Assembly: GCA_000990005.1 (NCBI GenBank)
Contig: LBPF01000001.1
Span: forward strand, 26,315 to 90,314
Reading direction: 5' to 3'
From: Candidatus Woesebacteria bacterium GW2011_GWB1_33_38
GTDB lineage: Bacteria; Patescibacteriota; Microgenomatia; UBA8517
Length of the DNA: 64,000 nt
Part shown: piece by piece, positions 1,575-63,196 of the stretch
How positions within the stretch are numbered: position 1 is the first letter of the stretch
Layout of the letters: each line of letters starts with the position of its first letter
The notes under the pieces: model-generated
Databases searched by the model: none
Told to the model about the DNA's origin: nothing
What the model saw: the letters and a program-made list of their open reading frames with translations, nothing else
Program-made: the position numbers and the translations under genes

Positions 1575-1582
1575 ATAGTTTT

Positions 1583-1608: not shown

Positions 1609-1627
1609 AAGAAGGAATGAAGGAGAT

Positions 1628-2068: not shown

Positions 2069-2072
2069 TCTA

Positions 2073-2098: not shown

Positions 2099-2882
2099 AG
2101 TATTATTCTTAATTGTATTTATGTTATTCTTTATTTTTCCATTCACAGTAAAAGCTGCATTTTCACTAGCGATCACAAGTGCAAGTCCTACTGACATTCT
2201 AGATAAAGAGCAAATAGTTGAAGTGACTTTACAAATTGAAGATTTACCGTCTGGTGATTCATATTTTAGGGCAGGGTGGAAATCTGGATCAAGTTATGTA
2301 GGTTATGTTCAAAATAATGGTGGTAATTGGGTAGAATTGCGCGCTCTAAGTGGTGAATGTAGTGATTATTTTAAAATTAGTGAAGCAACCACATCTGCAA
2401 TTTTAAAAATTAAAATTGGAGAGGAAAACGATATTTCCACTGGTACGATACCAATCAAGGCTCATAGGTTAACATCCTCATGTAGTAGTTCTTATGGAAG
2501 TAATGAATTTAATACAAATATTTTACTTCCAACTTCGACACCAGTACCAACAACTACTTCAACACCAATCGTAACCGCAATAAGTACGGCTACTGCGACA
2601 TCAACTCCGATTAAAACTGCGACGTCTACACCCACAAAAACCGCAACAGCAAAACCAACCACAACATCTACTCCAACTGAGTCGGGGCAAGCTGAGACCC
2701 CAGAATTTGTAGTCTCAGATATTAAAACATCAACACCAGAGGGTATTGTCGCTGGTGCGTCAACTTCCAAAAAATTTCCATTTCTATCTATTTTTTTTAT
2801 AGTCGCTGGAATTATGTTTTTGGGATATGGAGGATATTTAATATATAATAATAAGCATGGTAAAACTAATGAAGTTTCTTAA
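2079..2882 (+). CDS. Cell-surface protein: hydrophobic N-terminal signal, globular domain, Thr/Pro/Ala-rich linker, C-terminal TM anchor with basic tail
   Basis: The ORF track begins at 1968 but that stretch overlaps the regulator. In-frame ATGs at 2079 and 2121 precede a signal-like hydrophobic stretch. The linker is TSTPVPTTTSTP...KTATSTPTKTATAKPTTTSTPTE and the C-terminus is FLSIFFIVAGIMFLGYGGYLIYNNKHGK. The exact start is uncertain. Confidence 0.5.
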   Translation: MNQFIDTVLFLIVFMLFFIFPFTVKAAFSLAITSASPTDILDKEQIVEVTLQIEDLPSGDSYFRAGWKSGSSYVGYVQNNGGNWVELRALSGECSDYFKISEATTSAILKIKIGEENDISTGTIPIKAHRLTSSCSSSYGSNEFNTNILLPTSTPVPTTTSTPIVTAISTATATSTPIKTATSTPTKTATAKPTTTSTPTESGQAETPEFVVSDIKTSTPEGIVAGASTSKKFPFLSIFFIVAGIMFLGYGGYLIYNNKHGKTNEVS

Positions 2883-3225
2883 ATTCTGGTTACCTCCCAT
2901 CCTTTGGGCTATTATTATCTTTAGACTTTCGTCAAATGTACTTCCTTCAGTTGGGCCAACTTATTTAAGTGATTTTGCATTTAAAAAATTTTCTCATGTT
3001 TTCTTTTACGCAGTATTGGGGATCTTGGTTTATCGTGCTTTATTATCAGAAAATATCGTTAGGACAAAGGCGCTTTACATCTCAATAATTGTTTGTTTAA
3101 TTTATGGAATAGGTGATGAAATCCATCAATCATTTATCCCTGGCCGTGGACCACATATTAGAGATGTGGTTTTTGATACAATAGGTAGTTCACTAGGAGG
3201 AATATGGGCAAAAAAATACTTGTAA
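2857..3225 (+). CDS. VanZ-like family membrane protein
   Basis: It has four TM helices and a conserved-looking DEIHQSF...R..DVxxDxxG block typical of VanZ-like proteins. Confidence 0.5.
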   Translation: MVKLMKFLKFWLPPILWAIIIFRLSSNVLPSVGPTYLSDFAFKKFSHVFFYAVLGILVYRALLSENIVRTKALYISIIVCLIYGIGDEIHQSFIPGRGPHIRDVVFDTIGSSLGGIWAKKYL

Positions 3226-4190
3226 CTGGAGGAGCGGGTTATATTGGTTCTTTCATGGTCCGTCAGCTGGCGGAGAAAAATTATGAAGTTGTCGTTTTAG
3301 ACAATTTGTCATATGGTCACATAGAAGCAGTTAAAGATTTTCGTTTAGAAAAAATTGATTTAGTGACAGACACTCAGAAGTTAGATGATCTTTTTGAAAA
3401 TGAAAAGTTTTCGGCAGTTGTCCATATGGCTTCTTTTATCCAAATGGGAGAATCTTTTGTTAACCCTGCAAAATACTATTTAAATAATGTTGTTGGTTTT
3501 TTGAATTTAATGGAGGCAATGAGAAAGGGAAATTGTAAAAAAATAGTCCTTTCCTCTTCGGCTGGAGTATATGGAAATCCTGAAAGACTTCCAATTGATG
3601 AAAACGACTCCAAAGATCCTCTAAACCCATATGGAGAAACAAAATATATAATGGAAAGAATCTTGGAAGATTATGATGGTGCATATGAAATAAAGTTTGT
3701 TTCTCTTCGTTATTTCAATGCAGCAGGGGCATCCTTGGACGGTTCAATTGGGGAAGCCCATTCTGAAGAAAGCCATTTAATTCCAAATATTATAACCAAA
3801 GCTATTAAGGGAGAAGAAATTGAAATATTTGGTAGTGATTATGATACACCTGACGGAACATGTATTAGAGATTATATTCATGTTTTGGATTTGGTTGAAG
3901 CTCACTCTTTGGCTTTGGAGTTTTTAGATAATGGAAAAAGTGAAGTTTTTAATTTAGGAATTGGCAAAGGTTATTCAAATAAAGAAATAATTGAAATGAT
4001 TAAAAAAGTGACAGGTTTAGAATTAAAGATAAAATACGGACCAAAAAGAGTGGGGGATGCTAATTCGTTATATGCATCAAATGAAAAAATAAAAAAAGTA
4101 TTAGGTTGGATTCCGAAATATAACTTAAAAGATATTGTTAAATCTTCGTTTATTTGGCATAATACTCATCCAAATGGCTATCATAACTAA
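3204..4190 (+). CDS. galE: UDP-glucose 4-epimerase
   Basis: It carries a Rossmann motif (VTGGAGYIGS), a YxxxK catalytic motif (YGETK) and the full-length GalE pattern. Confidence 0.85.
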   Translation: MGKKILVTGGAGYIGSFMVRQLAEKNYEVVVLDNLSYGHIEAVKDFRLEKIDLVTDTQKLDDLFENEKFSAVVHMASFIQMGESFVNPAKYYLNNVVGFLNLMEAMRKGNCKKIVLSSSAGVYGNPERLPIDENDSKDPLNPYGETKYIMERILEDYDGAYEIKFVSLRYFNAAGASLDGSIGEAHSEESHLIPNIITKAIKGEEIEIFGSDYDTPDGTCIRDYIHVLDLVEAHSLALEFLDNGKSEVFNLGIGKGYSNKEIIEMIKKVTGLELKIKYGPKRVGDANSLYASNEKIKKVLGWIPKYNLKDIVKSSFIWHNTHPNGYHN

Positions 4191-5447: not shown

Positions 5448-5476
5448 TTGACAAGTGTGAAAGTAATGTATATATA
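5448..5476 (+). promoter_or_regulatory. Sigma-70-like promoter (TTGACA, 17 nt, TATATA) for the repeat-protein gene at 5641
   Basis: The hexamers are consensus-like with a 17-nt spacer and lie about 190 nt upstream of the ATG. Confidence 0.4.
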
Positions 5477-5493
5477 TAATTTATAGAATAGTA

Positions 5494-5512: not shown

Positions 5513-5640
5513 CTTTTTTTTCTCAGGAGTCTGGGGAGAAGAAGCCTCTGTTTTCGTTTTAAATGAAAATAGGGATGAAGTGCCTCTTAAACCCTGATTT
5601 AATCGGGGGGGGGAAAATAGATTGGGGGTGAATATATATA

Positions 5641-6876
5641 ATGAACAAATATAAAAAAGTCGTAGCCTCTGCACTAGCTGCTGGATCCCTTTTAATTAAT
5701 GGATTTATGCCAGTTCTTGCTCAAACAACAATTATACTTTCAGGTAATGGAACAGGTTCTGGTAATACAGCAACTGTTGCTGTTACTCAAAGTACCTTTG
5801 TTACTCAAAGCAATAATGCAGATGTTACAAATGTAGTAAATGCTGATGCTGACACAGGAGGAAATAAAGCTAGTGATAATACAGGTGGAGATGTTTCCAT
5901 TAAAACTGGAGACTCTGATGTAACCGTTGATATAAAGAATACTTTAAATCAAAATTCAGCTAGTGTTGACTGCTGTGGCGCAACAGGAGCAGATGTACTT
6001 ATTTCAGGTAATGGATCTGATAGTGATAATACTATTGATCTGTCATTGGGAGAAGAAGACGGTATAACAGTAACTCAATCAAATAATGCCAAAGTTAATA
6101 ACAATGTCGATGTTGATTCAGAAACTGGTGATAATAAAGCAAAAGATAACACAGGTGGAGATGTAACAATTGAAACTGGAGACGCAAGTGTTGATGTTTC
6201 ATTATCAACCACAGCTAACGCAAATTCCGCCCAAATTGGTGGAGGAACGGGAGGTGCTGGTTTATTGTCAGCCCGAATATTAGGAAATGGTACAGGTAGC
6301 GATAATGATATTGACTTAGATTTTGGTGGATCACTTTGGATAAAACAGGATAATTATGCTGCTGTTAATAACAGAGTTGATGCCGATGCCGAAACTGGCG
6401 AAAACAAAGCCAACGATAACACAGGTGGGGAAGTTTCAATTGAAACAGGAGACGCCGATGTTACTGTGGGTGTTGATAATAGTGTCAACTTCAATTGGGC
6501 AGACGCAGATTGTGGATGCTTATTAGAAGATGTACTAGTTAAAATCGCTGATAATGGTAGCGATACCCAAAATGATATAACTGCAGGACTTGGACAAGGC
6601 CTTACGGTTTTCCAAGGTAATGTAGCAGGTAGTGGATTGGAAAATTTTATCGATGCTGATGCAGACACTGGAGATAATAAAGCTAAGGATAACACAGGAG
6701 ATCCTGGTAGTGATCCTTCAGTTGAAACAGGTGATGCAACAACAGAGGTAATGCTAGAGAATTCTGGCAATTCCAATGTTTATGGCGGAACCCCAGACTG
6801 GGATTTTCCAGAATTGGGTTTCGATTTCAATTTTTCGTTCGATTTGAGCGATTTATTGGGATGGATGGGGCTATAA
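5641..6876 (+). CDS. Secreted repeat protein, paralog 1 (signal peptide, alternating GNGxxSxNT and TGxNKAxDNTGGxVxIxTGDAxV repeats, CC(G) cysteine pairs)
   Basis: The signal peptide is MNKYKKVVASALAAGSLLINGFMPVLAQ. About four tandem repeat units of roughly 95 aa follow, with Cys pairs (DCCGATGA, DCGC) and an acidic Phe-rich C-terminus. I recognise no family. Confidence 0.7.
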   Translation: MNKYKKVVASALAAGSLLINGFMPVLAQTTIILSGNGTGSGNTATVAVTQSTFVTQSNNADVTNVVNADADTGGNKASDNTGGDVSIKTGDSDVTVDIKNTLNQNSASVDCCGATGADVLISGNGSDSDNTIDLSLGEEDGITVTQSNNAKVNNNVDVDSETGDNKAKDNTGGDVTIETGDASVDVSLSTTANANSAQIGGGTGGAGLLSARILGNGTGSDNDIDLDFGGSLWIKQDNYAAVNNRVDADAETGENKANDNTGGEVSIETGDADVTVGVDNSVNFNWADADCGCLLEDVLVKIADNGSDTQNDITAGLGQGLTVFQGNVAGSGLENFIDADADTGDNKAKDNTGDPGSDPSVETGDATTEVMLENSGNSNVYGGTPDWDFPELGFDFNFSFDLSDLLGWMGL

Positions 6877-15397: not shown

Positions 15398-15405
15398 TTA
15401 CTTGA

Positions 15406-15429
15406 CTTCTTCTTCTTCTTCTTCTTCTT
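15406..15429. repeat. (CTT)8 trinucleotide microsatellite in the promoter/5' region of the gene at 15444
   Basis: Eight perfect CTT units start inside a TTGACT box and end at a TATAAAAT box. Confidence 0.9.
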
Positions 15430-15443
15430 ATAAAATACGTTTT

Positions 15444-26288: not shown

Positions 26289-27736
26289 ATTTTATTAAAA
26301 AAAACTGGATTTTAATTGCAATTTTATTAGTAGGCGCATTTCTTAGGCTTTATAAAATTGATTCGTACATGACCTTTTTAGGAGACGAGGGAAGGGACGT
26401 TATAATTGTTAGAAATTTACTAGTTAATGTTGATCCAATTTTAATTGGTCCAGGTACTTCAGTTGGAGGAATGTATTTAGGTCCACTTTATTATTACTTC
26501 ATGGCACCCTTTTTATTATTAGCAAATTTTTCTCCAGTTGGTCCTGCTATTGGTGTTGCCTTACTTGGCGTTGCAACAATTTATCTAGTTTATAAAGCAG
26601 GACGTGATTGGTTTTCTGAAAAAACAGGATTGTTTACAGCGATATTGTACGCAATTTCACCTACAGTAATTACTTTTTCTCATTCATCTTGGAATCCAAA
26701 CATTATGCCTTTTTTTGCACTTTTATCGGTGTATTCAATCTGGAAGGTTTGGAAATTAAAGCAATTTAAATGGCTTTTGATCTGTTCTGTCTCATATGCA
26801 TTTGTGCTTCAGTCTCACTATTTAGGATTACTTCTTGGACCTATCTTGTTGATATATTGGTTTTTAGCAAAAGTTCCACTTAAATACAATCTAATTCCAT
26901 TATTTGTATTTTTATTTCTAATGTCCCCGTTAGTAATTTTTGACTTTCGTCATGATTTTATGAATAGTAAGGCACTTTATAAGTTTATAACAGTTAGAGA
27001 GGAAACGGTATCAATCAAACCTTGGACAGTAATTCCTAGGCTTTTCCCTATTTTTGAACAAATCAATGAAAGTCTTTTAATTGCTAAGAATATAATTTTT
27101 GGTAAAATAATTACTTTGTTACTATCGTCTTTTCTTATTTTTTCTTTTTTTAAAAATAAAAAACTATTCACTAATCAATATTCACTAATCACTTTGTGGT
27201 TATTGGTAGGATTGGTTGGTTTTGGAATTTATAAACAGCCTGTTTATGATCACTATTTTGGTTTTTTATTTCCTGTACCGTTTTTATTTACTGGAGCTTT
27301 TTTGTCAAAAATATACGAAAGTAAATACAAAATATTTTCTGTTTTAATGTTGGGATATTTAGTTTCAATTAACTTAATTAATTCACCAATTAGGAACTAT
27401 CCCAATAATCAGATGCAGAGAGCAAAAAATGTCTCAACTAAAGTTCTTGAGATTGCTCAAGGTAACCCGTTTAATTTGGCAGTTTTGGCTGAAAGAAATT
27501 ATGAAGACGGTTATAGGTATTTTATGGAACTTAGTGGTGCACAAGTTATGCATGCGGACAGATGGGATCAAAAAACCATAGTTGATAATTTAATTGTTAT
27601 TTGTGAGATGCCTCAAGAAAAATGTGATCCGACACATTCACCAAAAGCTGAAGTTGCCAACTTTGGTTGGAGTAAAATCGAGAATCAATGGACTGTCGAC
27701 GGTGTTATAATATATAAATTGATACACACCCAATGA
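26285..27736 (+). CDS. GT-C-fold membrane glycosyltransferase (ArnT/PMT-like), paralog family A
   Basis: About 11 TM helices and a first-loop motif (LRLYKIDSYMTFLGDEGRD...GPGTSVGGMYLGPLYYY) are present. It is paralogous to the genes at 28703 and 30802. It contains a degenerate heptamer repeat at 27164-27191. Confidence 0.6.
   Translation: MNFIKKNWILIAILLVGAFLRLYKIDSYMTFLGDEGRDVIIVRNLLVNVDPILIGPGTSVGGMYLGPLYYYFMAPFLLLANFSPVGPAIGVALLGVATIYLVYKAGRDWFSEKTGLFTAILYAISPTVITFSHSSWNPNIMPFFALLSVYSIWKVWKLKQFKWLLICSVSYAFVLQSHYLGLLLGPILLIYWFLAKVPLKYNLIPLFVFLFLMSPLVIFDFRHDFMNSKALYKFITVREETVSIKPWTVIPRLFPIFEQINESLLIAKNIIFGKIITLLLSSFLIFSFFKNKKLFTNQYSLITLWLLVGLVGFGIYKQPVYDHYFGFLFPVPFLFTGAFLSKIYESKYKIFSVLMLGYLVSINLINSPIRNYPNNQMQRAKNVSTKVLEIAQGNPFNLAVLAERNYEDGYRYFMELSGAQVMHADRWDQKTIVDNLIVICEMPQEKCDPTHSPKAEVANFGWSKIENQWTVDGVIIYKLIHTQ
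27164..27191 (+). repeat. Degenerate heptanucleotide tandem repeat CTATTCA CTAATCA ATATTCA CTAATCA
   Basis: It lies in-frame inside the GT-C gene and encodes ..LFTNQYSLITLW. Confidence 0.7.
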
Positions 27737-36376: not shown

Positions 36377-37842
36377 TGGAAGACAAGGATTTATCAATTT
36401 CTGACGTAAAAGCAAGGTCGGTTAGAGGCGTTGTTGTCTTAACAGGTAGAACCGTAATTTTACAAGTTGTAACTTTAGTAGCTCAGCTTTTACTTTTTGC
36501 CTATTTGGGAGTTTCTGAATTTGGTGTTTTTGCAATTGTTTCGGCAGTTGTTAACTTTTTGACTTATTTTTCTGACATCGGTTTGGCGGCAGCCTTAATT
36601 CAAAAGAAAGAAACTCCATCTGATACTGATTTAAAAACTACATTTACTGTTCAACAGTGTCTTATTTTGTTTTTAGTTTTAATTTTATTTATTGTTTCCC
36701 CACTAATCACTAATCACTATTCACTGTCCACTGGTGGCCAGTGGTTAATGTATGCACTAGGATTTTCATTGATAATATCTTCTTTGAAAAGTATTCCCTC
36801 TGTTCTACTTGAAAGAAAACTTGAATTTGTTAAGTTGGTTTTCCCTCAAATTCTAGAAACTTTTGTTTATAACATTGTTTTAGTTGTTTTTGCCATGAAA
36901 GGCTTTGGGATAACCAGTTTTACTGTAGCAGTTATTATTAGAAGTTTGGTGGGACTTACCGTAATTTACTGGATACAACCTTGGAAACCGGGATTTTCAT
37001 TTTCTTTATCAACTTTAAAAGATTTATTTAAATTTGGTGTACCTTATCAAATAAATACACTCCTAGCTACATTTAAAGACGATGGAATGACATTAATTTT
37101 GGGTGGAATCATAGGTCCAGCTGGTATTGGGATACTTTCTTTTGCTCAAAAAGTTGCAAGGCTTCCCCTGACCTTTTTTATGGACACAGTAACGAAAGTT
37201 ACTTTCCCTGCATTTTCTAGACTACAAACTGAAAAAGACCATTTAGAAAGAAGCGTTACAAGATCAATATTCTTTATATGTTTACTCGTTTTTCCCAGCT
37301 TAGTTGGGATTGTCATATTGATGCCTTGGGTTGTAGAACTTGTTCCTAAATACAATAAATGGGTGGTTGCACTTACACCGTTATTGTTCATATCAATTAA
37401 TTACGCTTTTGCTTCAGCAACAACCCAATTAACAAATCTTTTAAATGCTATTGGTAAAATTAAAATCACATTTTACTTGATGATTATGTGGACAACTTTG
37501 ACTTGGGTTTTAATCCCTTTCTTGGCCATTAAGTTTGGTGTAAATGGCGCTGCCGTAGGTTACAGTTTAGTTGGACTTTCTTCAGTCGTCGCAGTCTATA
37601 TTGCTAAAAAGTATGTTAATTTTTCAATTAGTGATTCAATGATTAAACCTCTTATGGCCTCAATTATTATGTTTGTTACTTTAGTATTTGTTAGAAAGTT
37701 TTTAGATGTAAGTTTTTACTCCTTGGGAATTTTAGTTTTAGTGGGAGTAATTTCCTATTCTGCCTCAATTATTTCCATGGTCGGTTCAAGTTTGTTAGAA
37801 GATGTTAAAAAAAGCCTTAAAACCATTTTTAATCGCAATTAG
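36376..37842 (+). CDS. wzx: Wzx-like oligosaccharide flippase (MOP superfamily polysaccharide biosynthesis protein)
   Basis: It has 12-14 TM helices, an N-terminal pattern typical of the polysaccharide-biosynthesis (PST) family, and a start overlapping the upstream stop (TAATG). It contains a heptamer repeat at 36702-36729. Confidence 0.7.
   Translation: MEDKDLSISDVKARSVRGVVVLTGRTVILQVVTLVAQLLLFAYLGVSEFGVFAIVSAVVNFLTYFSDIGLAAALIQKKETPSDTDLKTTFTVQQCLILFLVLILFIVSPLITNHYSLSTGGQWLMYALGFSLIISSLKSIPSVLLERKLEFVKLVFPQILETFVYNIVLVVFAMKGFGITSFTVAVIIRSLVGLTVIYWIQPWKPGFSFSLSTLKDLFKFGVPYQINTLLATFKDDGMTLILGGIIGPAGIGILSFAQKVARLPLTFFMDTVTKVTFPAFSRLQTEKDHLERSVTRSIFFICLLVFPSLVGIVILMPWVVELVPKYNKWVVALTPLLFISINYAFASATTQLTNLLNAIGKIKITFYLMIMWTTLTWVLIPFLAIKFGVNGAAVGYSLVGLSSVVAVYIAKKYVNFSISDSMIKPLMASIIMFVTLVFVRKFLDVSFYSLGILVLVGVISYSASIISMVGSSLLEDVKKSLKTIFNRN
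36702..36729 (+). repeat. Degenerate heptanucleotide tandem repeat ACTAATC ACTAATC ACTATTC ACTGTCC
   Basis: It lies in-frame inside wzx and encodes PLITNHYSLST. Confidence 0.75.
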
Positions 37843-40274: not shown

Positions 40275-41914
40275 TTAAATATTTTATAGTTCTACTTGGT
40301 ACTTTGATTTGGTCTGTCACCATGTTTAGAAGTGGGTTGGAAGGTTCTAATGGCATTGGCTTCTGGGGTGCAAATGGACACGATGGGGTGTGGCATGTTG
40401 CCTTAATTGAATCTCTTGCAAGAAGAGGTTTTAATAATCCTGTTTTTTCCGGTTCTGTTTTACAGAATTATCATCTTGGCTTTGATATATTATTAGCGAT
40501 AACACATCGTTTAACAGGGATCAGTATTGGTTCCCTGTATTTTCAATTACTTCCCATTGTTTTTTCATTTCTAATTGGAATATTGACTTATAAATTTGTT
40601 TTTAACTGGAGAAGGTCACTTAGTGAAAGTTTTTGGGCTGTATTTTTTGTTTATTTTGGTAGTAGCTTCGGTTTTGTAATTACATTTTTAAGAGACAAGG
40701 TTGTTACAGGTGAATCAATGTTTTGGGCTTCACAATCAATTTCAACATTAATTAATCCGCCTTTTGCATTATCTTTAATTATTATTTTATTAGGTTTAAT
40801 TGCACTACAAAATAAAAAATTATTACTAAGTATATTGTGTTTTGGAATTCTAATTCAAATTAAAGCCTATGCTGCAATTTTAGTTCTTGGTGGATTATTT
40901 ATTGCTAGTATTTTTGAACTGTTCACTGCTCATCGTTCACTGCTCACCAAAGTCTTTCTCGGTTCTTTACTATTAAATTTAATATTATTTTTTCTATTTA
41001 AAAATGATGGCACATCTGTATTTGTTTGGCAACCCTTTTGGTTTTTGGAAACTATGATGTCTTATTCAGACAGATTGGGTTGGGATAGGTTTTATTCTGC
41101 TATGACTACTTACAAAATGGGACACATCTGGATAAAAGGTATCTTAGCCTATGGAACTGCTTTTGTAATATTTATCATAGGCAATATGGGATTAAGAGTT
41201 GTTGGGTTTTACTTCTTTTTAAAACATAAAAAACTTGACACTCTTTTAGTATTTATTCTGACAGTGGTTTTAATGGCTATTGTAATTCCAATGTTTTTTG
41301 TTCAAAAGGGTACGCCTTGGAATACTATTCAATTCTTCTATTACTATCTATTCTTCTTTTCTGTTTTTGCAGGAATTGCAATAAGTTGGTCGAAAGTTAT
41401 ATTTAAACTGATAATTATTGTTTTTGCTATTTTTGGTAGTTGGGCTACGCTTCAACACTATTTGCCACCAAGGCCACAATCCAAAATATCAACAGATGAG
41501 TTATATGCATTGAAATTTTTAGCAAATCAAGATCGGGGGATAGTTTTTACTTACCCCTTTGATTCTAATAAAGCGAAAACGGCAGAAAATAATCCACCAA
41601 GACCTCTGTATTTTTACGATTCAACAGCGTATGTATCCGCCTACTCTAAAAAGGACGTTTTTCTCGAGGATGAAATTAATTTAAATATCATGGATTATGA
41701 TTGGAAAACAAGAAGAGAAGAATCCTTGAATTTCATCTCAAATTTAGATCCTCAAAAAGGGAGCATGTTCTTAAAAGATAATAACATTAAATATTTATAT
41801 CTTGTCAAAGATAACTCTCCGCTTAGTGGAGAATATCTAAAATTGGGTACAGGCGATTTAAACTTAGAAAAGATTTTTGAGAACAGGGAGGTTATACTAT
41901 ATAAGTATGAATAA
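40259..41914 (+). CDS. Polytopic membrane protein, paralog family B (GHDGxWH motif), putative GT-C-like
   Basis: It has about 13 TM helices and a soluble C-terminal domain. It is clearly homologous to the minus-strand gene at 58334-60160 in both the N-terminal motif and the C-terminal domain. It contains a 14-mer x2 repeat. Confidence 0.55.
   Translation: MGSKIVKYFIVLLGTLIWSVTMFRSGLEGSNGIGFWGANGHDGVWHVALIESLARRGFNNPVFSGSVLQNYHLGFDILLAITHRLTGISIGSLYFQLLPIVFSFLIGILTYKFVFNWRRSLSESFWAVFFVYFGSSFGFVITFLRDKVVTGESMFWASQSISTLINPPFALSLIIILLGLIALQNKKLLLSILCFGILIQIKAYAAILVLGGLFIASIFELFTAHRSLLTKVFLGSLLLNLILFFLFKNDGTSVFVWQPFWFLETMMSYSDRLGWDRFYSAMTTYKMGHIWIKGILAYGTAFVIFIIGNMGLRVVGFYFFLKHKKLDTLLVFILTVVLMAIVIPMFFVQKGTPWNTIQFFYYYLFFFSVFAGIAISWSKVIFKLIIIVFAIFGSWATLQHYLPPRPQSKISTDELYALKFLANQDRGIVFTYPFDSNKAKTAENNPPRPLYFYDSTAYVSAYSKKDVFLEDEINLNIMDYDWKTRREESLNFISNLDPQKGSMFLKDNNIKYLYLVKDNSPLSGEYLKLGTGDLNLEKIFENREVILYKYE
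40921..40948 (+). repeat. Tandem 14-mer GTTCACTGCTCATC / GTTCACTGCTCACC
   Basis: It lies in-frame and encodes FTAHRSLLT. Confidence 0.7.
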
Positions 41915-42770
41915 AATTTCAGTTGTTTATTGTTCACATAATGAAGAGCTAAATATTGAGGAATCTATCAAATCTATTAAAGACTTTGCAGATGAAATAA
42001 TTTTTGTCGATTTGGAGTCAACAGATAGAACAGTCGAGATTGCAAAAAGGATGGGGGCCAAAATATACAAACATGAAAATTTAAGCTTTGTTGAACCTGT
42101 TAGAAACTTTGGAATTTTAAAAACAACTGGAGATTGGATATTAATTCTTGATCCAGATGAAAAGCTAACTGAGAGTTTAAAAAAACTTTTGAAAGAAGAG
42201 ATAAAAGATCCTCGGGCAGATTTTTATAGAATTCCTCGCAAAAATATAATTTTTGGAAAGTGGATGAAGCACACAGGTTGGTGGCCAGATTTTAACATTC
42301 GTTTCTTTAAAAACGGACACGTTTCTTGGAATGAAATAATACATTCTGTGCCAATGACGAAAGGAAAAGGATTTGATTTAGTAGCTAAAGAAGATTTAGC
42401 AATTATCCACAATAATTATACGTCTCTTGATAGTTATGTTGAGAAGATGTTTAGATATTCAAAAGTTCAAGCTGCCGAGTTAATAAAAGGTAGTTATAAA
42501 TTCAGTTGGCAGGATTTGATTAGAAAACCGCTATCAGAATTTTTATCAAGGTTCTTTGCCAGAGAAGGTTATAAGGATGGTATTCATGGCCTGATCCTGT
42601 CACTGCTACAATCTTTTTCTGAATTCTTTGTTTATCTAAGAGTTTGGGAATCTTTAAAATATAAAGAAGTAGAAATAGATAAAAAAGAGTTTAATAGTGT
42701 TATTAAATCATTTGTTAATGATATAAAATGGTGGATGAGAAAGGAGTTTTCATGGTTAAAGTTTCTATAA
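41907..42770 (+). CDS. GT2 family glycosyltransferase
   Basis: The start VVYCSHNEELNI and a DxD-like motif (DPDE) are present. The ATG at 41907 overlaps the stop of the upstream gene. Confidence 0.75.
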   Translation: MNKISVVYCSHNEELNIEESIKSIKDFADEIIFVDLESTDRTVEIAKRMGAKIYKHENLSFVEPVRNFGILKTTGDWILILDPDEKLTESLKKLLKEEIKDPRADFYRIPRKNIIFGKWMKHTGWWPDFNIRFFKNGHVSWNEIIHSVPMTKGKGFDLVAKEDLAIIHNNYTSLDSYVEKMFRYSKVQAAELIKGSYKFSWQDLIRKPLSEFLSRFFAREGYKDGIHGLILSLLQSFSEFFVYLRVWESLKYKEVEIDKKEFNSVIKSFVNDIKWWMRKEFSWLKFL

Positions 42771-43678
42771 TTATTTTAACTACCAACGCTCTTGATATGA
42801 CCAAGGAAGAGCTTAAAGATATTGCTGTTTTAAATCCAGGGAAACTTAAATTGGAGTGTATTGTTGTAGATAATAATTCCTCAGACGATACAGAGAGAGT
42901 GCTTAAAAATTATAGCTTACCCAATATGGGTTTTAAGTTTATTCAAAGCGGTGCTAATCGAGGTTATGCTGGTGGAAATAATTATGGAATTAAAGATGCA
43001 ATTAAAAGAGGGGCAGATTATATTTTGCTTTTAAATAATGATGTCATAGTTCCTGCTGACATGGTTACAAAAATGGTGGATTTTATGGAAAAAACTCCAA
43101 AAGCAGGCATTGTCTCTCCAAAGATGTATTTTGCAAAAGGATATGAATTCCACAAAGATAAATATAAAAATGACGAACTTGGAAAAGTCTTATGGTATGC
43201 AGGTGGAATACTAGACTGGGATAATATTTATTCACCCCATAGAGGAGTAGATGAAGTAGATGTAGGACAATACGACAAGGCAGAAAAAACTGATTTTGCA
43301 AATGGTGCAACACTATTAATTAAAAGAGAAGTATTTGAAAAAGTCGGACTTCTTGATCCTTCATTTTTTCTTTATTGGGAAGACCCAGATTTTTCAATGA
43401 AGGCCAAAGCTAAAGGTTTTGAAACTTATTATTTTCCTGGAACATGCATGTGGCACAAAGTATCTGCTTCTACAGGTGGATCAGGTAGCCCCACAAATGA
43501 TTATTTTTTGACCAGAAATAGATTATATTTTGCCATGCGATATGCAAAAGTTAGAACAAAAATTGCAGTTATAAGAGATTGTGTTAGATTAATATTTAAA
43601 GGTAGAACATGGCAAAAATGGGGAGCAATTGATGCACTTTTAGGAAGAAAGGGGATGGGGCAATGGCAATACCGTTAA
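42752..43678 (+). CDS. GT2 family glycosyltransferase (rhamnosyltransferase-like)
   Basis: An AAGGAG RBS lies 5 nt upstream of the ATG at 42752. The VVDNNSSDDT and YAGGNNYG motifs are present. Confidence 0.75.
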   Translation: MVKVSIIILTTNALDMTKEELKDIAVLNPGKLKLECIVVDNNSSDDTERVLKNYSLPNMGFKFIQSGANRGYAGGNNYGIKDAIKRGADYILLLNNDVIVPADMVTKMVDFMEKTPKAGIVSPKMYFAKGYEFHKDKYKNDELGKVLWYAGGILDWDNIYSPHRGVDEVDVGQYDKAEKTDFANGATLLIKREVFEKVGLLDPSFFLYWEDPDFSMKAKAKGFETYYFPGTCMWHKVSASTGGSGSPTNDYFLTRNRLYFAMRYAKVRTKIAVIRDCVRLIFKGRTWQKWGAIDALLGRKGMGQWQYR

Positions 43679-44385
43679 TATCGGCGGTCGTGTTAATAGG
43701 CGAGAATGTTGATAAAAAACTTTTAGAAAAATCTTTTAAATCTATTTCTTGGTGTGATGAGATAATTAAAGTAGATACAAGTAAAATAAGAGGTAGCTTT
43801 AGCGAGTGGCGAAATGAAGGAATGAGTCTTGCTAAGGGTAAGTGGGTTTTGTATGTTGATGCAGATGAAGAAGTTACGCAATTTCTTCGCAAAGAAATTG
43901 AGTTACAAATCACAAATCACAAATCACAAATCACTGCCTTTGCAATTCCTAGGCGGAATTTCATTTTTGGGCAAGAATTTAAGTATGGTGGACAATACCC
44001 TGATTACCAAAAAAGACTTTTTTTAAGACGCAGTCTAAAAAAATGGATGGGGGAACTACATGAGGAACCAGAATTTGAAGGCGAACTGAGCCATTTTAAA
44101 AATCCGATTGTTCACCGCAAAAATATTACTGTTTCTCAAATGATTGAGAAGACAAACAAGTGGTCAGAAATTGAAAGTAAACTAATGGTAGATGCGGGAC
44201 ACCCCAAAATGAACGTTTTAAGATTTGCATCAGCTGGATTTAGAGAATTTTATATAAGATTTGTTAAAGAACTTTGTTTTCTAGATGGTACAAAAGGAAT
44301 AATTTATGGAATTTATCAAATATATAGTAGACTGATTAGCTATTCAAAATTATGGGAAAAGCAAGCTTATACAATCCATACTTAG
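43663..44385 (+). CDS. GT2 family glycosyltransferase carrying an in-frame (ACAAATC)4 repeat
   Basis: It is paralogous to the gene at 41907, with the motifs YVDADEE and FGQEFKYGGQYPDYQKR. Relative to the paralog it contains the extra segment LQITNHKSQITAF, which the repeat encodes. Confidence 0.7.
   Translation: MAIPLISAVVLIGENVDKKLLEKSFKSISWCDEIIKVDTSKIRGSFSEWRNEGMSLAKGKWVLYVDADEEVTQFLRKEIELQITNHKSQITAFAIPRRNFIFGQEFKYGGQYPDYQKRLFLRRSLKKWMGELHEEPEFEGELSHFKNPIVHRKNITVSQMIEKTNKWSEIESKLMVDAGHPKMNVLRFASAGFREFYIRFVKELCFLDGTKGIIYGIYQIYSRLISYSKLWEKQAYTIHT
43905..43932 (+). repeat. (ACAAATC)x4 perfect heptanucleotide tandem repeat inside the GT2 coding sequence
   Basis: Four exact units were read directly. 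Confidence 0.9.
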
Positions 44386-45392
44386 ACACTCTTGGTGGTG
44401 GTGAAAAATACACCTTGTCTTTTGCTAAAGTTTTAGCTGAAGATTTAGGGTTTGATGTTGATATCGAGTGGAAAGATAAAAATATCAAAGAAAAACTAAC
44501 AAAACGTTTTGGAATAAAACTTCCTAAAAACGTTAATTTTGTTAAAGATATAAATAGAGGTGAAGGGTATGATGTATGTTTTTGGGTGAGTGATGGAAGT
44601 GTACCAACACTACGAGCTAAAAATAATTACCTTCATTTTCAAGTTCCATTCACAAATGTAAATGGAAACTCGCTTCTTAATAAAATGAAACTATTTAGAA
44701 TTAAAAAAATAATATGCAATTCAAAATTTACTAAAAATGTAATTGATAAGGAATATACTGTTAACTCCTTAGTGCTTTACCCACCAGTAGATACTAAGTT
44801 ATTTAAACCCAAAAGAAAAGAAAACATTGTTTTGTATGTTGGAAGATTTTCAAATCTTGTACAAAACAAAGGTCATAAAATTTTAATTACTGAATTCAAA
44901 AAACTTGTTAAAGACAAAAGTTACCACAATTGGAAACTAATTTTAGCTGGTGGTACTGAAGTTGGTGTTGGAGAGTATGTTAATAAACTTAAAAAAATAT
45001 GTAGTGGGTATAATATTGATATTGTTGAAAGTCCAAGTTTTAAAAAAATAGTTGATATTTATGGGAAGAGTAAATTCTTTTGGTCAGCAGCAGGTTTTGG
45101 AATTGATGAAGAGAAAAATCCGGAAAAGGTAGAACATTTTGGTATAACTCTAGTTGAAAGTATGGCCGCTGGATGTGTACCAATTGTTTTTAATTCAGGA
45201 GGCTTTAAAGAAATTATTGTAAACGGCATAAATGGTTTTCTCTGGGAATACAAAAGCGATTTAGTAAAGATAACAAAAAAGGTACTATCAAAACCTGGAA
45301 TTTACAAATCAATTTCAAAATCTGCGACTGAGAGCGCAAAAGAATTTAGTCATGAGATTTTTAAGAAAAAAATGTTAGAATTAATGACTTAA
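44352..45392 (+). CDS. GT4 (GT-B fold, glycos_transf_1) glycosyltransferase
   Basis: The C-terminal motif GITLVESMAAGCVPIVFNSGGFKEII is present. Confidence 0.75.
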   Translation: MGKASLYNPYLDTLGGGEKYTLSFAKVLAEDLGFDVDIEWKDKNIKEKLTKRFGIKLPKNVNFVKDINRGEGYDVCFWVSDGSVPTLRAKNNYLHFQVPFTNVNGNSLLNKMKLFRIKKIICNSKFTKNVIDKEYTVNSLVLYPPVDTKLFKPKRKENIVLYVGRFSNLVQNKGHKILITEFKKLVKDKSYHNWKLILAGGTEVGVGEYVNKLKKICSGYNIDIVESPSFKKIVDIYGKSKFFWSAAGFGIDEEKNPEKVEHFGITLVESMAAGCVPIVFNSGGFKEIIVNGINGFLWEYKSDLVKITKKVLSKPGIYKSISKSATESAKEFSHEIFKKKMLELMT

Positions 45393-45400
45393 TAACAATT

Positions 45401-46333
45401 ATGAAAAGTTTTAAAGTATCTGTAGTAATGCCAAATATTAATGGGAAAACCATTATGGAAAAGAATTTGCCAAAGCTTTTTGAAGCTGTCAATAATCCTA
45501 AAAATAATATTATTGAAGTTATCATAGTAGATGATGGAAGTTGGGATGATAGTGTGAAGTTTCTGTCTACTGAATATAAAGATAAGGTAAAATTAATTAA
45601 ACATACTAAAAACAGAGGTTTTTCGGCAGCTGTTAATACTGGGGTTAGGGCAACAAGTGGTGATTTAATCCTTCTAATTAATACTGATGTTATTCCAGAA
45701 AAGAATTTTTTAGAAAGTGTAGTGCCTCATTTTGAAGATCCAAAAGTTTTTGCCGTTTCAACACATGAGACTGGGTATGGGGGAGCTAAGGGTTTTTGGG
45801 CAGATGGCTACATCCAACTTGGAATGAACGAAGAAACTAAGAGCGTTCATCAAAGTTTTTATGTAAGCGGAGGAAGTGGAGTTTTTAGAAAAAGTATTTG
45901 GCAGGAGTTGGGGGGAATGGATGAAAAACTACTTTCTCCTTTTTATTGGGAAGATATTGATCTTTGTTACAGAGCAACAAAAAGAGGTTATATTAATTTA
46001 TGGGAACCAAATGGAAAAGTTGTTCATCAACATGAGTCAACAATTTCAAAATTTCCTAAAAAATATGTTGCTCGTGTTAAAGAAAGGAATCAACTTCTAA
46101 TGCTTTGGAAAAATATACATAGTAAAAATTTAATTAAAAAACATATCCCTGCAATTATTTTAAGAGCTCTAAGACACCCTGGTTATTTTTTGATTATCTT
46201 TATGGCCTTGGGTAGACTTAACATTGCTTTAAAAGCTAGAAAAAAAGAAATAAAAGAATGTAAGGTTTCAGATGAGGCAATATTTGCAAACTATAAATTC
46301 ACCCCCACACCAAAACAGTCTATAAAAAAATGA
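45401..46333 (+). CDS. GT2 family glycosyltransferase
   Basis: The motifs VVMPNING and VDDGSWDDS are present, and the protein is about 310 aa. Confidence 0.75.
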   Translation: MKSFKVSVVMPNINGKTIMEKNLPKLFEAVNNPKNNIIEVIIVDDGSWDDSVKFLSTEYKDKVKLIKHTKNRGFSAAVNTGVRATSGDLILLINTDVIPEKNFLESVVPHFEDPKVFAVSTHETGYGGAKGFWADGYIQLGMNEETKSVHQSFYVSGGSGVFRKSIWQELGGMDEKLLSPFYWEDIDLCYRATKRGYINLWEPNGKVVHQHESTISKFPKKYVARVKERNQLLMLWKNIHSKNLIKKHIPAIILRALRHPGYFLIIFMALGRLNIALKARKKEIKECKVSDEAIFANYKFTPTPKQSIKK

Positions 46334-51252: not shown

Positions 51253-52846
51253 CTGGCAGCTTGCTTTAATTTTTGTTCTAGGAATATTTGTTTCATTGCC
51301 GTTGTTTAGGAGCGGATATTTTTCTCATCAAGATGATTTGCATGTAATAAGGATAGTTGAAATACGAAAATGTTTTACCGACTTCCAAATTCCTTGCCGT
51401 TGGGTGCCAGATATGGGTTGGGGAAATGGAATGCCTGTTTTTAATTTCTACGGTGTTTCAGTTTATTACATTGGTGCAATATTAAGTTATTTTGTAGGCT
51501 TTTTAGGTGCATCTAAATTGCTTTTCTTTGCAAGTTTAATATTTGGTAGTTTCGGTCTTTATTTACTGGTCAGAGATTTGTGGGGAAAATATGCAGGTTT
51601 AACTTCAGCAGTACTTTATATGTTTGCCCCCTACAAGGCTCTTGATGTTTATGTTAGGGGTGCGCTTTCAGAAAGTATGGCCTTAGCAATTATTCCCTTT
51701 GTTTTTTACTTTTTTTACAAAAAGTCATTCGGTTGGGCAACCTTTTTCTTGGCTTTATTTTTGATAACACACAATATTATGACTGTCGTATTTCTACCCG
51801 TAATTATTGTATGGATCTTATATCTACTTTGGAGCGAAAATCGGGAACATTATAAGTTATTTTTACTAAGTTTATTACTTGCTTTTGGTCTCTCTGCTTT
51901 TTTTACGTTACCTGCATTTTTGGAAAAAAATTTGGTACAAACAGAAAGTTTAACTAGGTTTGAACTTGATTACAGGGCAAACTTTATCAGTATTCGACAA
52001 TTATTTTTTGATAGAGTTTGGGGATATGGAACCTCAATTCCGGGTCCAACTGGCGCTATGAATTTTCAAATTGGTTGGCCACACTGGATCCTTGCTGTTT
52101 TCACCCCAATCTTCCTATTTTTTAGGAAAACTAAAAAACACTTGCTACTTACTACATTCTACTTTCTACTGTTTGTCATCTCCATTTATATGACTCACAA
52201 TAAGTCAACTATTTTTTGGGAAAATATTAGTATTTTACAGTTTTTTCAATTTCCGTGGAGATTTTTATCGCTATCTATTTTTACATCATCACTTTTGGGG
52301 GGAGTGATTGTTTTTATGACAAAAGAAAAATGGCAAAAGATATTAGCAATAATAATTATAAGTTTGACAGTTTTATTAAATTGGGGTTATTTTAGACCTA
52401 GAGAATATTATGACATTAATGATTCACAAAAATTAACAGGGAATTTATGGGAAGAACAGAGACGTGGTGCACTTTTAGATTATTTACCTAAAACTGCTCT
52501 AGAACCAAGAGAAGGTGCTCCTGAAAATCCGTTAATAATTTCTGGAGAAGCAAAATTAATCAACTTTGTAAATCAGTCGAATCGCTTTTCATTTAATGCC
52601 GATGTAATGACAGTAAGTCAAATCGATATTCCAGTATTTTATTTTCCAAACTGGGAAGTTAAGGTTGATGGAAATAAGCATCTTGTAACACATGATAATA
52701 TTTTAGGTAGAATTTCAATTTTATTAACTCCGGGGCAACATGAGGTAATTGGTAATTTCAAAAACACTCCACTTAGAACATTTGCAAATATGATATCAAT
52801 CATTAGTTTGTTTGCTTTGTTGGGTTTTATAAAATGCAAAAAATAA
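51230..52846 (+). CDS. Polytopic membrane protein, paralog family C copy 2
   Basis: It has the same loop motif (HQDDLHVIRIVEIRKCFTDFQIPCRWVPDMGWGNGMPVFNFY) and architecture. Confidence 0.55.
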   Translation: MKKLLQNNWQLALIFVLGIFVSLPLFRSGYFSHQDDLHVIRIVEIRKCFTDFQIPCRWVPDMGWGNGMPVFNFYGVSVYYIGAILSYFVGFLGASKLLFFASLIFGSFGLYLLVRDLWGKYAGLTSAVLYMFAPYKALDVYVRGALSESMALAIIPFVFYFFYKKSFGWATFFLALFLITHNIMTVVFLPVIIVWILYLLWSENREHYKLFLLSLLLAFGLSAFFTLPAFLEKNLVQTESLTRFELDYRANFISIRQLFFDRVWGYGTSIPGPTGAMNFQIGWPHWILAVFTPIFLFFRKTKKHLLLTTFYFLLFVISIYMTHNKSTIFWENISILQFFQFPWRFLSLSIFTSSLLGGVIVFMTKEKWQKILAIIIISLTVLLNWGYFRPREYYDINDSQKLTGNLWEEQRRGALLDYLPKTALEPREGAPENPLIISGEAKLINFVNQSNRFSFNADVMTVSQIDIPVFYFPNWEVKVDGNKHLVTHDNILGRISILLTPGQHEVIGNFKNTPLRTFANMISIISLFALLGFIKCKK

Positions 52847-61572: not shown

Positions 61573-63196
61573 ATTAATATTAATATTAGCCCTCGCATTT
61601 TTTTTAAGATTTTACAAAATTACTTCAATTCCTCCATCCTTAAATTGGGATGAGACCTCAATTGCTTATAATGCATATTCAATTTTAAAGACGGGGAGAG
61701 ATGAATGGGGACAGTTTATGCCTGTTCACTTTAAATCATTTGGAGAGTATAAACTACCTGCTCAAATATATGCATCAATTCCGGGAGTTGCCATCTTTGG
61801 ACTAAACGAGTTTGGGGTTCGCATCACCCCTGTTGTTTATGGAACTTTAACAATATTTCTTTTATATCTTTTAGCGCAGGAACTGTACAGAAAAAGATAT
61901 ATTTCTTTAATTTCGGCATTTCTTTTAGCTGTTTCTCCTTGGCACATTCAACTTACTCGCGCTTCATTTGAATCATCATTCTCTTTATTTTGGTTTTTGC
62001 TGGCCTTACTGTTTTTAGTTAAAGGTTTAAAAGAAAAAAAATGGATTATTGTTTCAATGGTTCCGTTTGTAATTTCGGTCTATACTTACAACACAGCAAG
62101 AATTTTTACACCATTGTTCTTGTTTGTTTTTTATCTATTAAATTTTAATTTTTTCTTGAAGAATCTTAAATATTTAGCATTTAGCTTTTTAGCATTTATA
62201 TTTTTAACTTCGCCCATTATACCTTTTGTTCTTTCGGGAGATGCCTCTGCACGCTATAAGTTAGTTAGTATTACAAATGATAAAGGACTAATCCCTAGAA
62301 TTGAAGAAAGAAGAAATTTATCAAAATTATCACCTATTTTTACAAAATTAATTCATAACAGATATACATATAACACATATTATTTTAGTCAAAACTATCT
62401 TGCCCACTTTAGTCCAAGTTTTTTATTTCTTAAAGGTGCTGGTCATCACCAACATCATGTTCAAGGTGTTGGTGAGCTATATTGGTTCCAAGCCCCATTT
62501 TTATTGTTTGGTATTTTTGTACTGTTAAAAAAGAAAGATCTTAGTTTAAAAATATTACTGCCATGGTTACTGTTATCGTTTGTGCCTGTTTCTATGACCA
62601 ATGATAGTATTCCCAATGCACTTCGCACCTTAATTGCTGCCCCTGTTTATCAGATTTTTACTGCAGTTGGTATATATGAATTCATACAAAAGACTAAAGA
62701 CCAAAGACTAAAGACTGCAATAATCGCGACAACAGTTGCTCTATTTATAATTAACTTTTGTATATTTGCAACTAATCTCTATACCCTATACCCTATACGC
62801 TATTCTCGAGACTGGCAATATGGGAACAAACAGGTTGTTGAATATATAAAGGATCATATGGATGAGTACAGTTTAATTGTTTTTACAAGACACTATGGAG
62901 AACCACACATTTTTACACTTTTCTATTTAAAATATGATCCAGCCAGATTTCAGAACAGTTATAATTTAGAGAGGTTTGAAACTTTTGATTGGGTAAGAGT
63001 ACTAAGATTTGATAGATTTTATTTTCCTGACCTAGGGGATGAAGGTACAAAATATCAAGATGTCATTAAGGCAAATAAAGGCAAAAAAATATTATTTATT
63101 GGAAAACCTGGTGATTTCCCACCTGAGGCCAAAATACTTGAAAAAATTTATTTCCTAAACGGTGAACCAGCATTCGAAATAACAAATAATCTATGA
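61562..63196 (+). CDS. GT-C-fold membrane glycosyltransferase (ArnT-like), paralog family E
   Basis: The first-loop motif is LRFYKITSIPPSLNWDETSIAYNAYSI. It contains the heptamer repeat at 62771-62805. Confidence 0.6.
   Translation: MKSKLILILALAFFLRFYKITSIPPSLNWDETSIAYNAYSILKTGRDEWGQFMPVHFKSFGEYKLPAQIYASIPGVAIFGLNEFGVRITPVVYGTLTIFLLYLLAQELYRKRYISLISAFLLAVSPWHIQLTRASFESSFSLFWFLLALLFLVKGLKEKKWIIVSMVPFVISVYTYNTARIFTPLFLFVFYLLNFNFFLKNLKYLAFSFLAFIFLTSPIIPFVLSGDASARYKLVSITNDKGLIPRIEERRNLSKLSPIFTKLIHNRYTYNTYYFSQNYLAHFSPSFLFLKGAGHHQHHVQGVGELYWFQAPFLLFGIFVLLKKKDLSLKILLPWLLLSFVPVSMTNDSIPNALRTLIAAPVYQIFTAVGIYEFIQKTKDQRLKTAIIATTVALFIINFCIFATNLYTLYPIRYSRDWQYGNKQVVEYIKDHMDEYSLIVFTRHYGEPHIFTLFYLKYDPARFQNSYNLERFETFDWVRVLRFDRFYFPDLGDEGTKYQDVIKANKGKKILFIGKPGDFPPEAKILEKIYFLNGEPAFEITNNL
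62771..62805 (+). repeat. Degenerate heptanucleotide tandem repeat ACTAATC TCTATAC CCTATAC CCTATAC GCTATTC
   Basis: It lies in-frame and encodes TNLYTLYPIRYS. Confidence 0.75.

Follow-up and report, generated by a model that had tools for sequence, protein, structure and literature searches.

Introduction

Intragenic switching by heptanucleotide repeats is already known in bacteria, and the closest described systems provide a frame for the locus examined here: a perfect heptanucleotide array, (ACAAATC)x4.3, inside a family 2 glycosyltransferase (GT2) gene of Candidatus Woesebacteria bacterium GW2011_GWB1_33_38. The gene lies on a stretch of 64,000 nucleotides of contig LBPF01000001.1 (positions 26,315 to 90,314, forward strand), referred to below as the window, and coordinates are those of the window. 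In Neisseria meningitidis, pglE, which encodes a glycosyltransferase of O-linked protein glycosylation, is phase-variable through an intragenic heptanucleotide repeat (PMC7157529). Here, as in pglE, the heptanucleotide sits inside a glycosyltransferase gene, and a change in unit number shifts the frame and would remove the addition of one sugar to a surface glycan, although this likeness is one of mechanism only and implies no sequence relationship. Whereas ON/OFF switching of pglE has been followed in carrier isolates, the present tract has 4 units and a single OFF allele, in an uncultured groundwater bacterium of the Candidate Phyla Radiation (CPR).

In Escherichia coli K1, neuO, the polysialate O-acetyltransferase gene of the CUS-3 prophage, carries the variable-number tandem repeat (VNTR) known as poly-psi, in which AAGACTC is present in 2-93 copies and is translated; the gene is ON when the copy number is a multiple of 3, three units encode one peptide heptad, and single-copy slippage is what happens most often (PMC3046976). 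The window tract shares with neuO a coding, translated heptanucleotide and an ON state set by unit number modulo 3. In contrast, the neuO tract begins two nucleotides after the start codon, while that of the window lies mid-gene at codons 81-91, at a helix-loop-strand junction, is ON at n = 1, 4 and 7, has 4 copies, and belongs to a GT-A glycosyltransferase rather than an acetyltransferase. The tract would work like neuO, yet it falls outside the class of neuO-type translated heptad VNTRs. The preliminary description of the window had likened the tract to intragenic heptanucleotide switches, and with pglE and neuO as the points of reference the analogy is apt (PMC7157529, PMC3046976).

Other heptamer repeats are more distant in their arrangement. 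In Haemophilus influenzae, (AACAACC)n lies in or near a TonB-dependent receptor gene, for which intragenic switching has been proposed, and (TGAAAGA)n lies in the hmw promoters; the survey that describes them counted arrays of at least 3 units as simple sequence repeats (SSRs) and recorded copy numbers up to 13-38 (hmw) (PMC2651432). These are likewise heptamer SSRs with strain-to-strain unit differences that truncate reading frames, but they belong to iron-receptor and adhesin genes, and the hmw tracts act on promoter transcription. More generally, an excess of heptamer SSRs has been described across bacterial genomes (2007 work, as cited in PMC4692102), with examples such as Xanthomonas GGGAATC, Nostoc GGGGATT and Beggiatoaceae TAACTGA (PMC4692102; PMC4679880). 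The arrays reported below resemble these in a period-7-specific excess, in having mostly about four units, and in a length and sequence that vary between close relatives; they differ in being coding, at conserved sites of glycan genes and with lineage-specific units, whereas the general heptamer SSRs are mostly intergenic with a lineage-wide unit. Finally, a genome from the Gracilibacteria, also CPR bacteria, contains a gene with a hypervariable, in-frame 9-mer (PTD) repeat (PMC6851277). This is slippage-type repeat hypervariability in a CPR bacterium as well, but its 9-nt units alter protein length and composition and cause no frameshift ON/OFF.

In the literature searched, no paper tied phase variation to Patescibacteria, Woesebacteria or the CPR. 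Bacteria of the CPR, or Patescibacteria, combine very small genomes and a scarcity of regulators with a dependence on contact with hosts at the cell surface. Within that literature, the tract described here is the first of its kind reported for CPR bacteria, and heptamer arrays that are conserved in site across a protein family are the more novel element. The reading that we favor, and to which we would give an even chance, is that the tract is a slippage-prone coding microsatellite that serves as a frameshift ON/OFF switch of a GT2 enzyme in a Woesebacteria envelope-glycan operon.

Results

A perfect heptanucleotide array lies within a GT2 gene

Positions 43905-43932 consist of exactly four ACAAATC units, as the preliminary description had reported, and two further bases extend the array to 43934. 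The tract runs from the third base of codon 81 to codon 91 as an uninterrupted array within a reading frame that is open throughout. In TCAC phase it reads TTACAAA-TCACAAA-TCACAAA-TCACAAA-TCACTGC, and it encodes E-L-Q-I-T-N-H-K-S-Q-I-T-A-F, the peptide that had been given for it. The features of the locus are as follows.

43663..44385, + strand: GT2-type glycosyltransferase gene, 240 aa, GT-A fold, DxD motif D66-A-D68 (4-unit ON allele)
43905..43934, + strand: perfect heptanucleotide array (ACAAATC)x4.3 (Tandem Repeats Finder, TRF: 100% matches, score 60)
43950..43952, + strand: premature TAG stop of the 2-, 5- and 8-unit alleles; the 91-aa product of the 2-unit allele ends ...ELQITNHCLCNS
44024..44026, + strand: premature stop of the 0-, 3- and 6-unit alleles, in the frame of open reading frame (ORF) 43829-44026
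44047..44385, + strand: residual C-terminal ORF, 112 aa from M129, reported by gene callers for the frameshifted gene

Among the perfect repeats of the window with units of 4 nt or longer, no other reaches 4 copies; the in-frame hexamer GGTTAT x3 at 49762 is the sole further one to reach 3. The lag-7 identity run at the tract is 23, whereas runs of at least 10 average 0.2 per window in 20 codon-block shuffles, and by our own arithmetic a run of at least 21 is expected about 1e-7 times per window. The tract is real and far above chance.

Unit number determines whether the gene is read to its end

Alleles with 0-8 ACAAATC units were built computationally and translated. Full-length proteins of 233, 240 and 247 aa were obtained with 1, 4 and 7 units, respectively, and with no other number in this range. 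Alleles with 2, 5 or 8 units run into the stop at 43950-43952, giving products of 91, 98 and 105 aa, and those with 0, 3 or 6 units into the stop at 44024-44026, giving products of 111, 118 and 125 aa. The unit of 7 nt is no multiple of three, and a one-unit change shifts the frame; the earlier claim that gain or loss of a single unit frameshifts the gene is thereby borne out by the computed alleles. Every OFF product terminates soon after the DxD motif and is without about 60% of the protein. These stubs (91-125 aa) are shifted in frame from about residue 86, past the DxD motif, and lack more than 40 invariant residues.

A natural allele has lost two units and the intact frame

The predicted products were sought by exact sequence in a collection of 15 billion proteins. 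The 4-unit protein was found on 23 contigs and is listed in 38 index blocks. The 91-aa product of the 2-unit allele (P0123) is also present, on one contig, and the 112-aa fragment from M129 (P0122) is found on that same contig only. No product for n = 1, 3, 5, 6, 7 or 8 was found by exact look-up in this collection. Since the 112-aa remnant is expected of any OFF allele, its presence on one contig puts the consensus ON:OFF ratio at roughly 23:1.

The contig that carries the 2-unit allele is ENA ERZ27254745 k141_1099024, 206 kb long (L168; numbers of this form denote the loci compared here). Over the 20,276 nt aligned with window positions 33663-53952, it shows 0 mismatches and a single 14-nt gap that corresponds to exactly two heptamer units. 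The tract is the sole difference between the two across 20 kb, and the remaining heptamer arrays in this interval are unchanged. There is, then, polymorphism in unit number on an otherwise identical background, in one instance against about 23 four-unit contigs, and it is a natural polymorphism that inactivates the GT2 gene. The preliminary description would have given up the idea of phase variation had unit number proved invariant among reads, strains or populations; the 2-unit allele in ERZ27254745, on a 20-kb background of 100% identity, is such a variant.

We considered whether the tract is in fact stable, a frozen remnant of an old duplication, and the 2-unit allele an artefact of assembly or sequencing. 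The variant is known from a single contig at the consensus level, and De Bruijn assemblers may mishandle tandem repeats at small k. However, the contig name indicates MEGAHIT with k141, and a 141-nt k-mer spans the 30-nt tract together with unique flanks; a contig from another sample with a k141-type name (L005) shows 4 units; and the gap is exactly two units in register, with no other array changed and no mismatch in 20 kb. Because k141 spans the tract, L005 gives 4 units and the other arrays are unchanged, assembly collapse is unlikely as the source of the 2-unit allele, and we hold the artefact explanation as a whole to be improbable.

Seven loci fetched by means of the focal protein and its two neighbors each have 4 units; at 99.7-100% identity they belong to one and the same strain, and their remaining differences are N-run scaffold gaps. 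A scan of Joint Genome Institute (JGI) metagenome contigs for the exact flanks with a variable gap (N{9,39}) returned 0 matches, so the window strain is absent from the JGI collection.

The tract-bearing gene belongs to an envelope-glycan operon

The match of the focal protein to the Pfam GT2 family (PF00535) is borderline, at 23.4 bits against a cutoff of 23.3 and over profile positions 54-129, and precomputed PF00535 matches are present in many orthologues. NCBIfam gave no meaningful family name for the protein. Its 772 homologues come from Woesebacteria, Dojkabacteria, Microgenomates and Patescibacteria, the best being 60-70% identical and 230-250 aa long, and the identical protein is held by NCBI under accessions such as KKP48290.1, labeled 'Candidatus Woesebacteria bacterium'. 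Contigs bearing the protein originate from Rifle groundwater (PRJNA268031). Residues D66 and D68 of the DxD motif are invariant in 31 aligned sequences, as are about 60 further residues. The AlphaFold2 (AF2) model, with a mean predicted local distance difference test score (pLDDT) of 91, has a GT-A fold; its nearest solved structures by Foldseek are the SunS/ThuS S-glycosyltransferases (E 1e-9), followed by TarS, TarP and others, and by sequence the nearest is GmaR. The N-terminal nucleotide-binding part is shorter than in typical GT2 proteins. Taken together, the profile, the DxD motif and the modeled fold indicate a GT2 (GT-A) glycosyltransferase, and family membership suggests that the gene acts on a surface structure.

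The genes immediately on either side are as follows.

42728..43678, + strand: upstream GT2 gene, 316 aa, whose 3' end overlaps the focal start by 16 nt
44352..45392, + strand: downstream GT4-type (Glycos_transf_1) gene, whose start lies 34 nt inside the focal gene

The 16-nt overlap with the upstream GT2 gene places both in one operon. No promoter or terminator was called on the + strand between the focal and GT4 genes, and near the focal gene no + strand promoter was called and one terminator-like site alone, upstream, inside the preceding GT2 gene. The glycan genes around the focal gene are co-directional and overlapping and include genes for sugar-nucleotide enzymes, and the window as a whole is an envelope-glycan island, almost entirely on one strand, with genes for epimerases/dehydratases, RmlD, a nucleotidyl transferase, several GT2s, a GT4, PMT_2/GT-C proteins and a Wzx-like flippase.

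The tract occupies a loop that the family already had

In the AF2 model, the tract encodes the end of helix 73-84, the loop at 85-89 and the start of strand 90-101, and its columns are the least conserved of the family alignment. The preliminary description had stated that this segment is absent from the paralogous GT2 at 41907-42770. This did not hold up: BLASTP aligns ELQITNHKSQITAFAIPRRN with EEIKDPRADF--YRIPRKN of the paralogue, leaving a gap of 2 aa only. Loop length equals that of the window protein in 30/30 aligned orthologues, and many orthologues have similar loop peptides, for example LITNHQSLITAF or QITNHRSPITCF. The 2-aa difference and the 30 loops of equal length show that neither against the paralogue nor against the orthologues is the tract an insertion; the repeat sits in a loop that existed before it.

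In the same paralogous gene, 41907-42770 (L004/L007), a net 21-nt in-frame insertion, CTTTTG[CACAAAACAATTAAAAAAGTTGGT]GAAGAG, was observed at about 42191 on Scaffold_1426 of ERZ28563784. Its position is in the helix that precedes the counterpart of the focal loop, and the product is 294 aa long versus 287 aa; the Scaffold_1426 set has N-run gaps, and the insertion may be an artefact.

Orthologous loops carry 7-nt-periodic DNA with different units

The loop DNA of 160 orthologous loci was taken out at the conserved residues that flank it, E78-I79 on one side and A-Y-A-I-P-R on the other, and comprised 146 distinct loops. Many orthologues have 7-nt-periodic DNA at this site, with differing units, among them the following.

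L013: CAAATCA x4.7 with one mismatch, the unit being that of the window, at 58% amino acid identity
L099, 2244-2271: GGAAATT x4, perfect
L009 and L098: GTCAACC
L103: ATTAACC / ATTAGCC
L093: TCACGGT
L089: CAATTAA
L016: TCAATTM
L061 and L085: AATTTCA, at just 33-35% amino acid identity
L171, L170 and L169 (nearest relatives): TCACTAA-type arrays

Lag-7 self-match is 0.372 in the loops of orthologues with at least 50% identity, compared to 0.268 in the rest of the same genes, and lags 14 and 21 are raised as well. Of the distinct loops, 31/146 fall in the top 1% of windows of their own genes. When each loop is scored by its best 28-nt window, 19/146 have a lag-7 match of 15/21 or higher, as do 0/730 controls drawn from these genes. 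The consensus units at the loops are of at least 12 kinds, and arrays with at least 13/21 matches comprise 22 different canonical units. A protein-level heptad was rejected as the cause, since it would give a period of 21 nt rather than 7 nt: lag-7 self-match (0.372) exceeds that at lag 21 (0.338), and the units differ between lineages. Homogeneity within arrays combined with differing units between lineages is the signature that concerted evolution by continuing slippage would be expected to leave.

A perfect TCACTAA array presents TAA in every frame within 21 nt and is hence non-coding, so each coding array of this type requires one altered unit (TAT, AAA, CGT or CAA). In the window lineage all units are the stop-free TCACAAA, which makes a perfect coding array possible. 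For the perfect array of L099, an exact look-up of allele products in the protein collection returned the native protein alone, on 3 contigs, a number that gives the search no power.

Several details of individual orthologous loci were also recorded. In L170, the closest relative (70% identity; 1501-3400), an 18-nt segment with inverted ends (CACCTG...CAGGTG) interrupts the array, and the focal orthologue is separated from the GT4 gene by two extra genes, one Polyketide_cyc2-like and one with a Bro-N domain. The focal-loop array of L093 has an 18-mer, TCACTGCTCATCGTTCAC, in common with window positions 40923-40947 in an unrelated gene for a 551-aa protein, which may reflect convergence of TCAC-phased arrays or some exchange. 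In L163 (2741-2775) and L053 (3738-3773), heptamer arrays occupy the short intergenic space directly 3' of the focal orthologue.

Heptamer arrays recur in other glycan genes

The window holds six further heptamer or 14-nt arrays, all imperfect and all in genes of the same strand that belong to the glycan cluster.

27160..27200, + strand: sister array TATTCACTAATCAA x1.9, 14-nt period, in a PMT_2 / GT-C gene, encoding LFTNQYSLIT
36697..36734, + strand: sister array CCACTAA-TCACTAA-TCACTAT-TCACTGT-CCACTGG in the Wzx-like flippase gene, encoding SPLITNHYSLST
40915..40950, + strand: sister array TCACTGC-TCATCGT-TCACTGC-TCACC in the 551-aa membrane-protein gene, encoding ELFTAHRSLLT
52140..52172, + strand: CTACTTN x4, an imperfect heptamer array, in the gene for a 538-aa membrane protein
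62684..62809, + strand: two imperfect arrays (62684-62719 and 62771-62809) in a PMT-like (PMT_2-type GT-C) 544-aa gene, comprising AAAGACT x4 at 62689-62716, in which one base is mismatched, and CTATACC x3.6 at 62779-62803

Period-7 arrays with at least 4 copies and at least 80% lag-match number 5 in the window, compared to 0.03 in shuffles, and none has a period of 8-12. The 162 related loci, 797 kb in all, contain 32 period-7 arrays, compared to 0 in three shuffles, and again none with periods 8-12. In orthologues of the 551-aa protein, other heptamer units stand at the same residue positions (L012, TCATAAA x5; L010, ATCTTAC x5; L037, CATTCTA x4-5), and the gene for this membrane protein is a second with a site-conserved heptamer hot spot. 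L009 was also counted among these loci.

Further perfect arrays were found outside the focal loop in other Microgenomates loci, each with an ORF passing through it.

L130/L131, 1066-1093: TATCAAT, in the upstream GT2
L148, 1096-1123: AAATTAC, in the upstream GT2
L015, 2225-2268: CAATTTC, in the upstream GT2
L074, 5423-5450: AAGGACG, in a 639-aa ORF

In L130/L131, L148 and L015 the array is close to the N-terminus of the protein, an orthologue of the GT2 encoded at 42728-43678, where a helix passes into a strand. The stubs predicted for frameshifted alleles of L130, L148 and L015, 34-84 aa in length, would probably escape gene calling.

The recurrence of one phase raises the question of whether the periodic sequence is itself an element, either a peptide motif or a coding-strand site that a protein reads as TCAC every 7 nt. 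(TCACNNN)4 with at most 1 mismatch is present in four window genes, always on the coding strand, against 0.01 expected, and the encoded peptides (LFTNQYSLIT, LITNHYSLST, LFTAHRSLLT and QITNHKSQIT) are similar, of the type xITNHxSxIT. However, orthologous arrays keep the period and not the sequence (GGAAATT, GTCAACC, ATTAACC, CAATTAA and others), the peptide likeness follows automatically from translating similar heptamers, and no columns of the family alignment are less conserved than those of the array. TCACTAA as an over-represented or strand-skewed 7-mer, of the kind of an uptake sequence or an FtsK-orienting (KOPS) motif, was likewise rejected, as outside the arrays it is neither over-represented nor skewed between strands (7 versus 6 per strand). 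We therefore regard a sequence-specific element as very improbable.

Comparison of near-identical pairs of loci turned up a single frameshifting indel above 3 nt, a tandem duplication of 14 nt, AAAAACTTGCCA(A/T)A, in L104 (2751-2778) relative to L105/L106 (3797-3810), strains that are 99.4-99.5% identical. It shifts the frame at about codon 20 of another GT2, the orthologue of 45401-46333, giving 276 aa compared to 298 aa, and is a second natural broken allele in the same type of cluster. In the window, perfect 14-nt x1.9 blocks were recorded by TRF at 27165 and 62689. The 14-nt indels of the focal gene and of L104, along with these 14-nt blocks, hint at slippage in two-unit steps.

Discussion

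Switching or a by-product of slippage

If the tract is a frameshift switch, then alleles with 4 (or 1 or 7) units would yield the complete enzyme, 240 aa at 4 units, and other counts a stub of 91-125 aa, so that an OFF allele would leave the surface glycan without one sugar-transfer step. The premature stop might in addition have a polar effect, impairing translation of the overlapping downstream GT4. Unit changes would arise by slipped-strand mispairing or direct-repeat deletion in replication and would be heritable and, in principle, reversible. The tract would also be part of a lineage-wide set, in which many orthologues have an array in this loop and neighboring glycan genes have theirs at fixed sites.

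Several observations weigh against this. Four units pass the threshold of at least 3 used in the SSR survey of H. influenzae (PMC2651432), yet they are far fewer than in tracts with measured switching, which are usually much longer (2-93 copies in neuO, 13-38 in hmw). An excess of heptamer SSRs is a general trait of many bacteria, for which a bias of polymerase slippage has been made responsible (PMC4692102), and the enrichment alone is therefore no proof of selection for switching. Most orthologous arrays are degenerate, with only 2/146 perfect. The frame is intact across the loop in 160/160 loci, as the tblastn segment spans it, and 30/32 arrays of the related loci are in frame at consensus, the other two being intergenic. 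The variant rests on one consensus assembly, and about 23 ON contigs (38 index blocks) stand against 1 OFF, with no 3- or 5-unit products and no reversion seen. In classical contingency loci, by contrast, OFF alleles are common.

These points feed the main rival, artefact and sequence-specific element being minor ones: that the arrays are a non-adaptive by-product, in which heptamer-biased slippage churns repeats at sites where the protein tolerates them (helix-loop-strand junctions and loops of membrane proteins) and unit changes are deleterious, one-way knock-outs with no switching. We take this explanation seriously and still think it doubtful. It accounts for alleles that are nearly always ON, for arrays that are mostly degenerate and for a copy number of four, and the location of the arrays in the least conserved loop columns speaks for it, as does the attribution of the heptamer excess elsewhere to the footprint of the polymerase (PMC4692102). 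A return of the 2-unit allele to frame, moreover, needs an event of +2 or -1 unit. However, in-frame periods (6, 9, 12) should be far better tolerated in coding DNA than 7, yet periods 8-12 are absent and period 7 is dominant. Arrays that are homogeneous within themselves occur at the same site in orthologues down to about 33% identity. Within a sample confined to glycan clusters, all arrays lie in or beside genes for surface glycans, on which phase variation classically acts. The OFF allele, furthermore, stands at consensus in one natural sample.

The preliminary description singled out the tract as its strongest candidate for phase variation. The candidacy is strengthened by a repeat that does frameshift and by a natural broken allele, and is held back by a single variant, four units and alleles that are nearly all ON. 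With four units the rate of switching is probably modest; high-frequency, reversible switching would be a further step, and an ON-dominated consensus without 3- or 5-unit alleles argues against very high rates. A selective benefit, for example bet-hedging against phage or in host attachment, may be envisaged.

On a broader and more tentative view, which we consider rather unlikely, the heptamer arrays would form a lineage-wide 'phasome' of Microgenomates (CPR), that is, short repeats kept at fixed envelope-glycan sites by second-order selection. It would comprise the focal GT2, the upstream GT2, the 551-aa membrane protein, and Wzx-like and PMT-like proteins, and slippage would keep renewing the arrays, hence the unit differences between lineages. 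If this were true, small-genome episymbionts could flip single glycan steps stochastically as a defense against phage or for host attachment, and a contingency-locus system would for the first time have been described beyond cultured bacteria, most of which are host-associated.

For the frameshift switch as such, the combination, in a conserved glycan operon, of a frameshifting repeat and an allele broken in nature offers a concrete and checkable mechanism for heritable surface heterogeneity in these uncultured bacteria. Arrays that are exclusively of period 7, at conserved sites and with unit turnover down to about 33% identity, also constitute a data set on which mutational bias can be set against selected mutability. 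In practical terms, such tracts lead to apparent pseudogenes and split gene calls in metagenome-assembled genomes.

Other repeats in the window

Two further simple repeats were noted in the window. At 5605-5613, a G9 homopolymer stands out in a genome of 32% GC, in a region of about 380 nt upstream of the gene for a signal-peptide protein (5641-6876); it lies downstream of a promoter-like site, TTGACA...TATA(T/A)A, near 5448-5480, and no Rfam family matches the region. At 15402-15444, a perfect (CTT)x8 (15406-15429) lies between TTGACT (15402) and TATAAA (15430), ahead of a likely ATG at 15444. The resulting spacer is 22 nt long and consists of the trinucleotide repeat, and no canonical promoter was called here; as judged from this arrangement, (CTT)x8 could tune the length of a promoter spacer.

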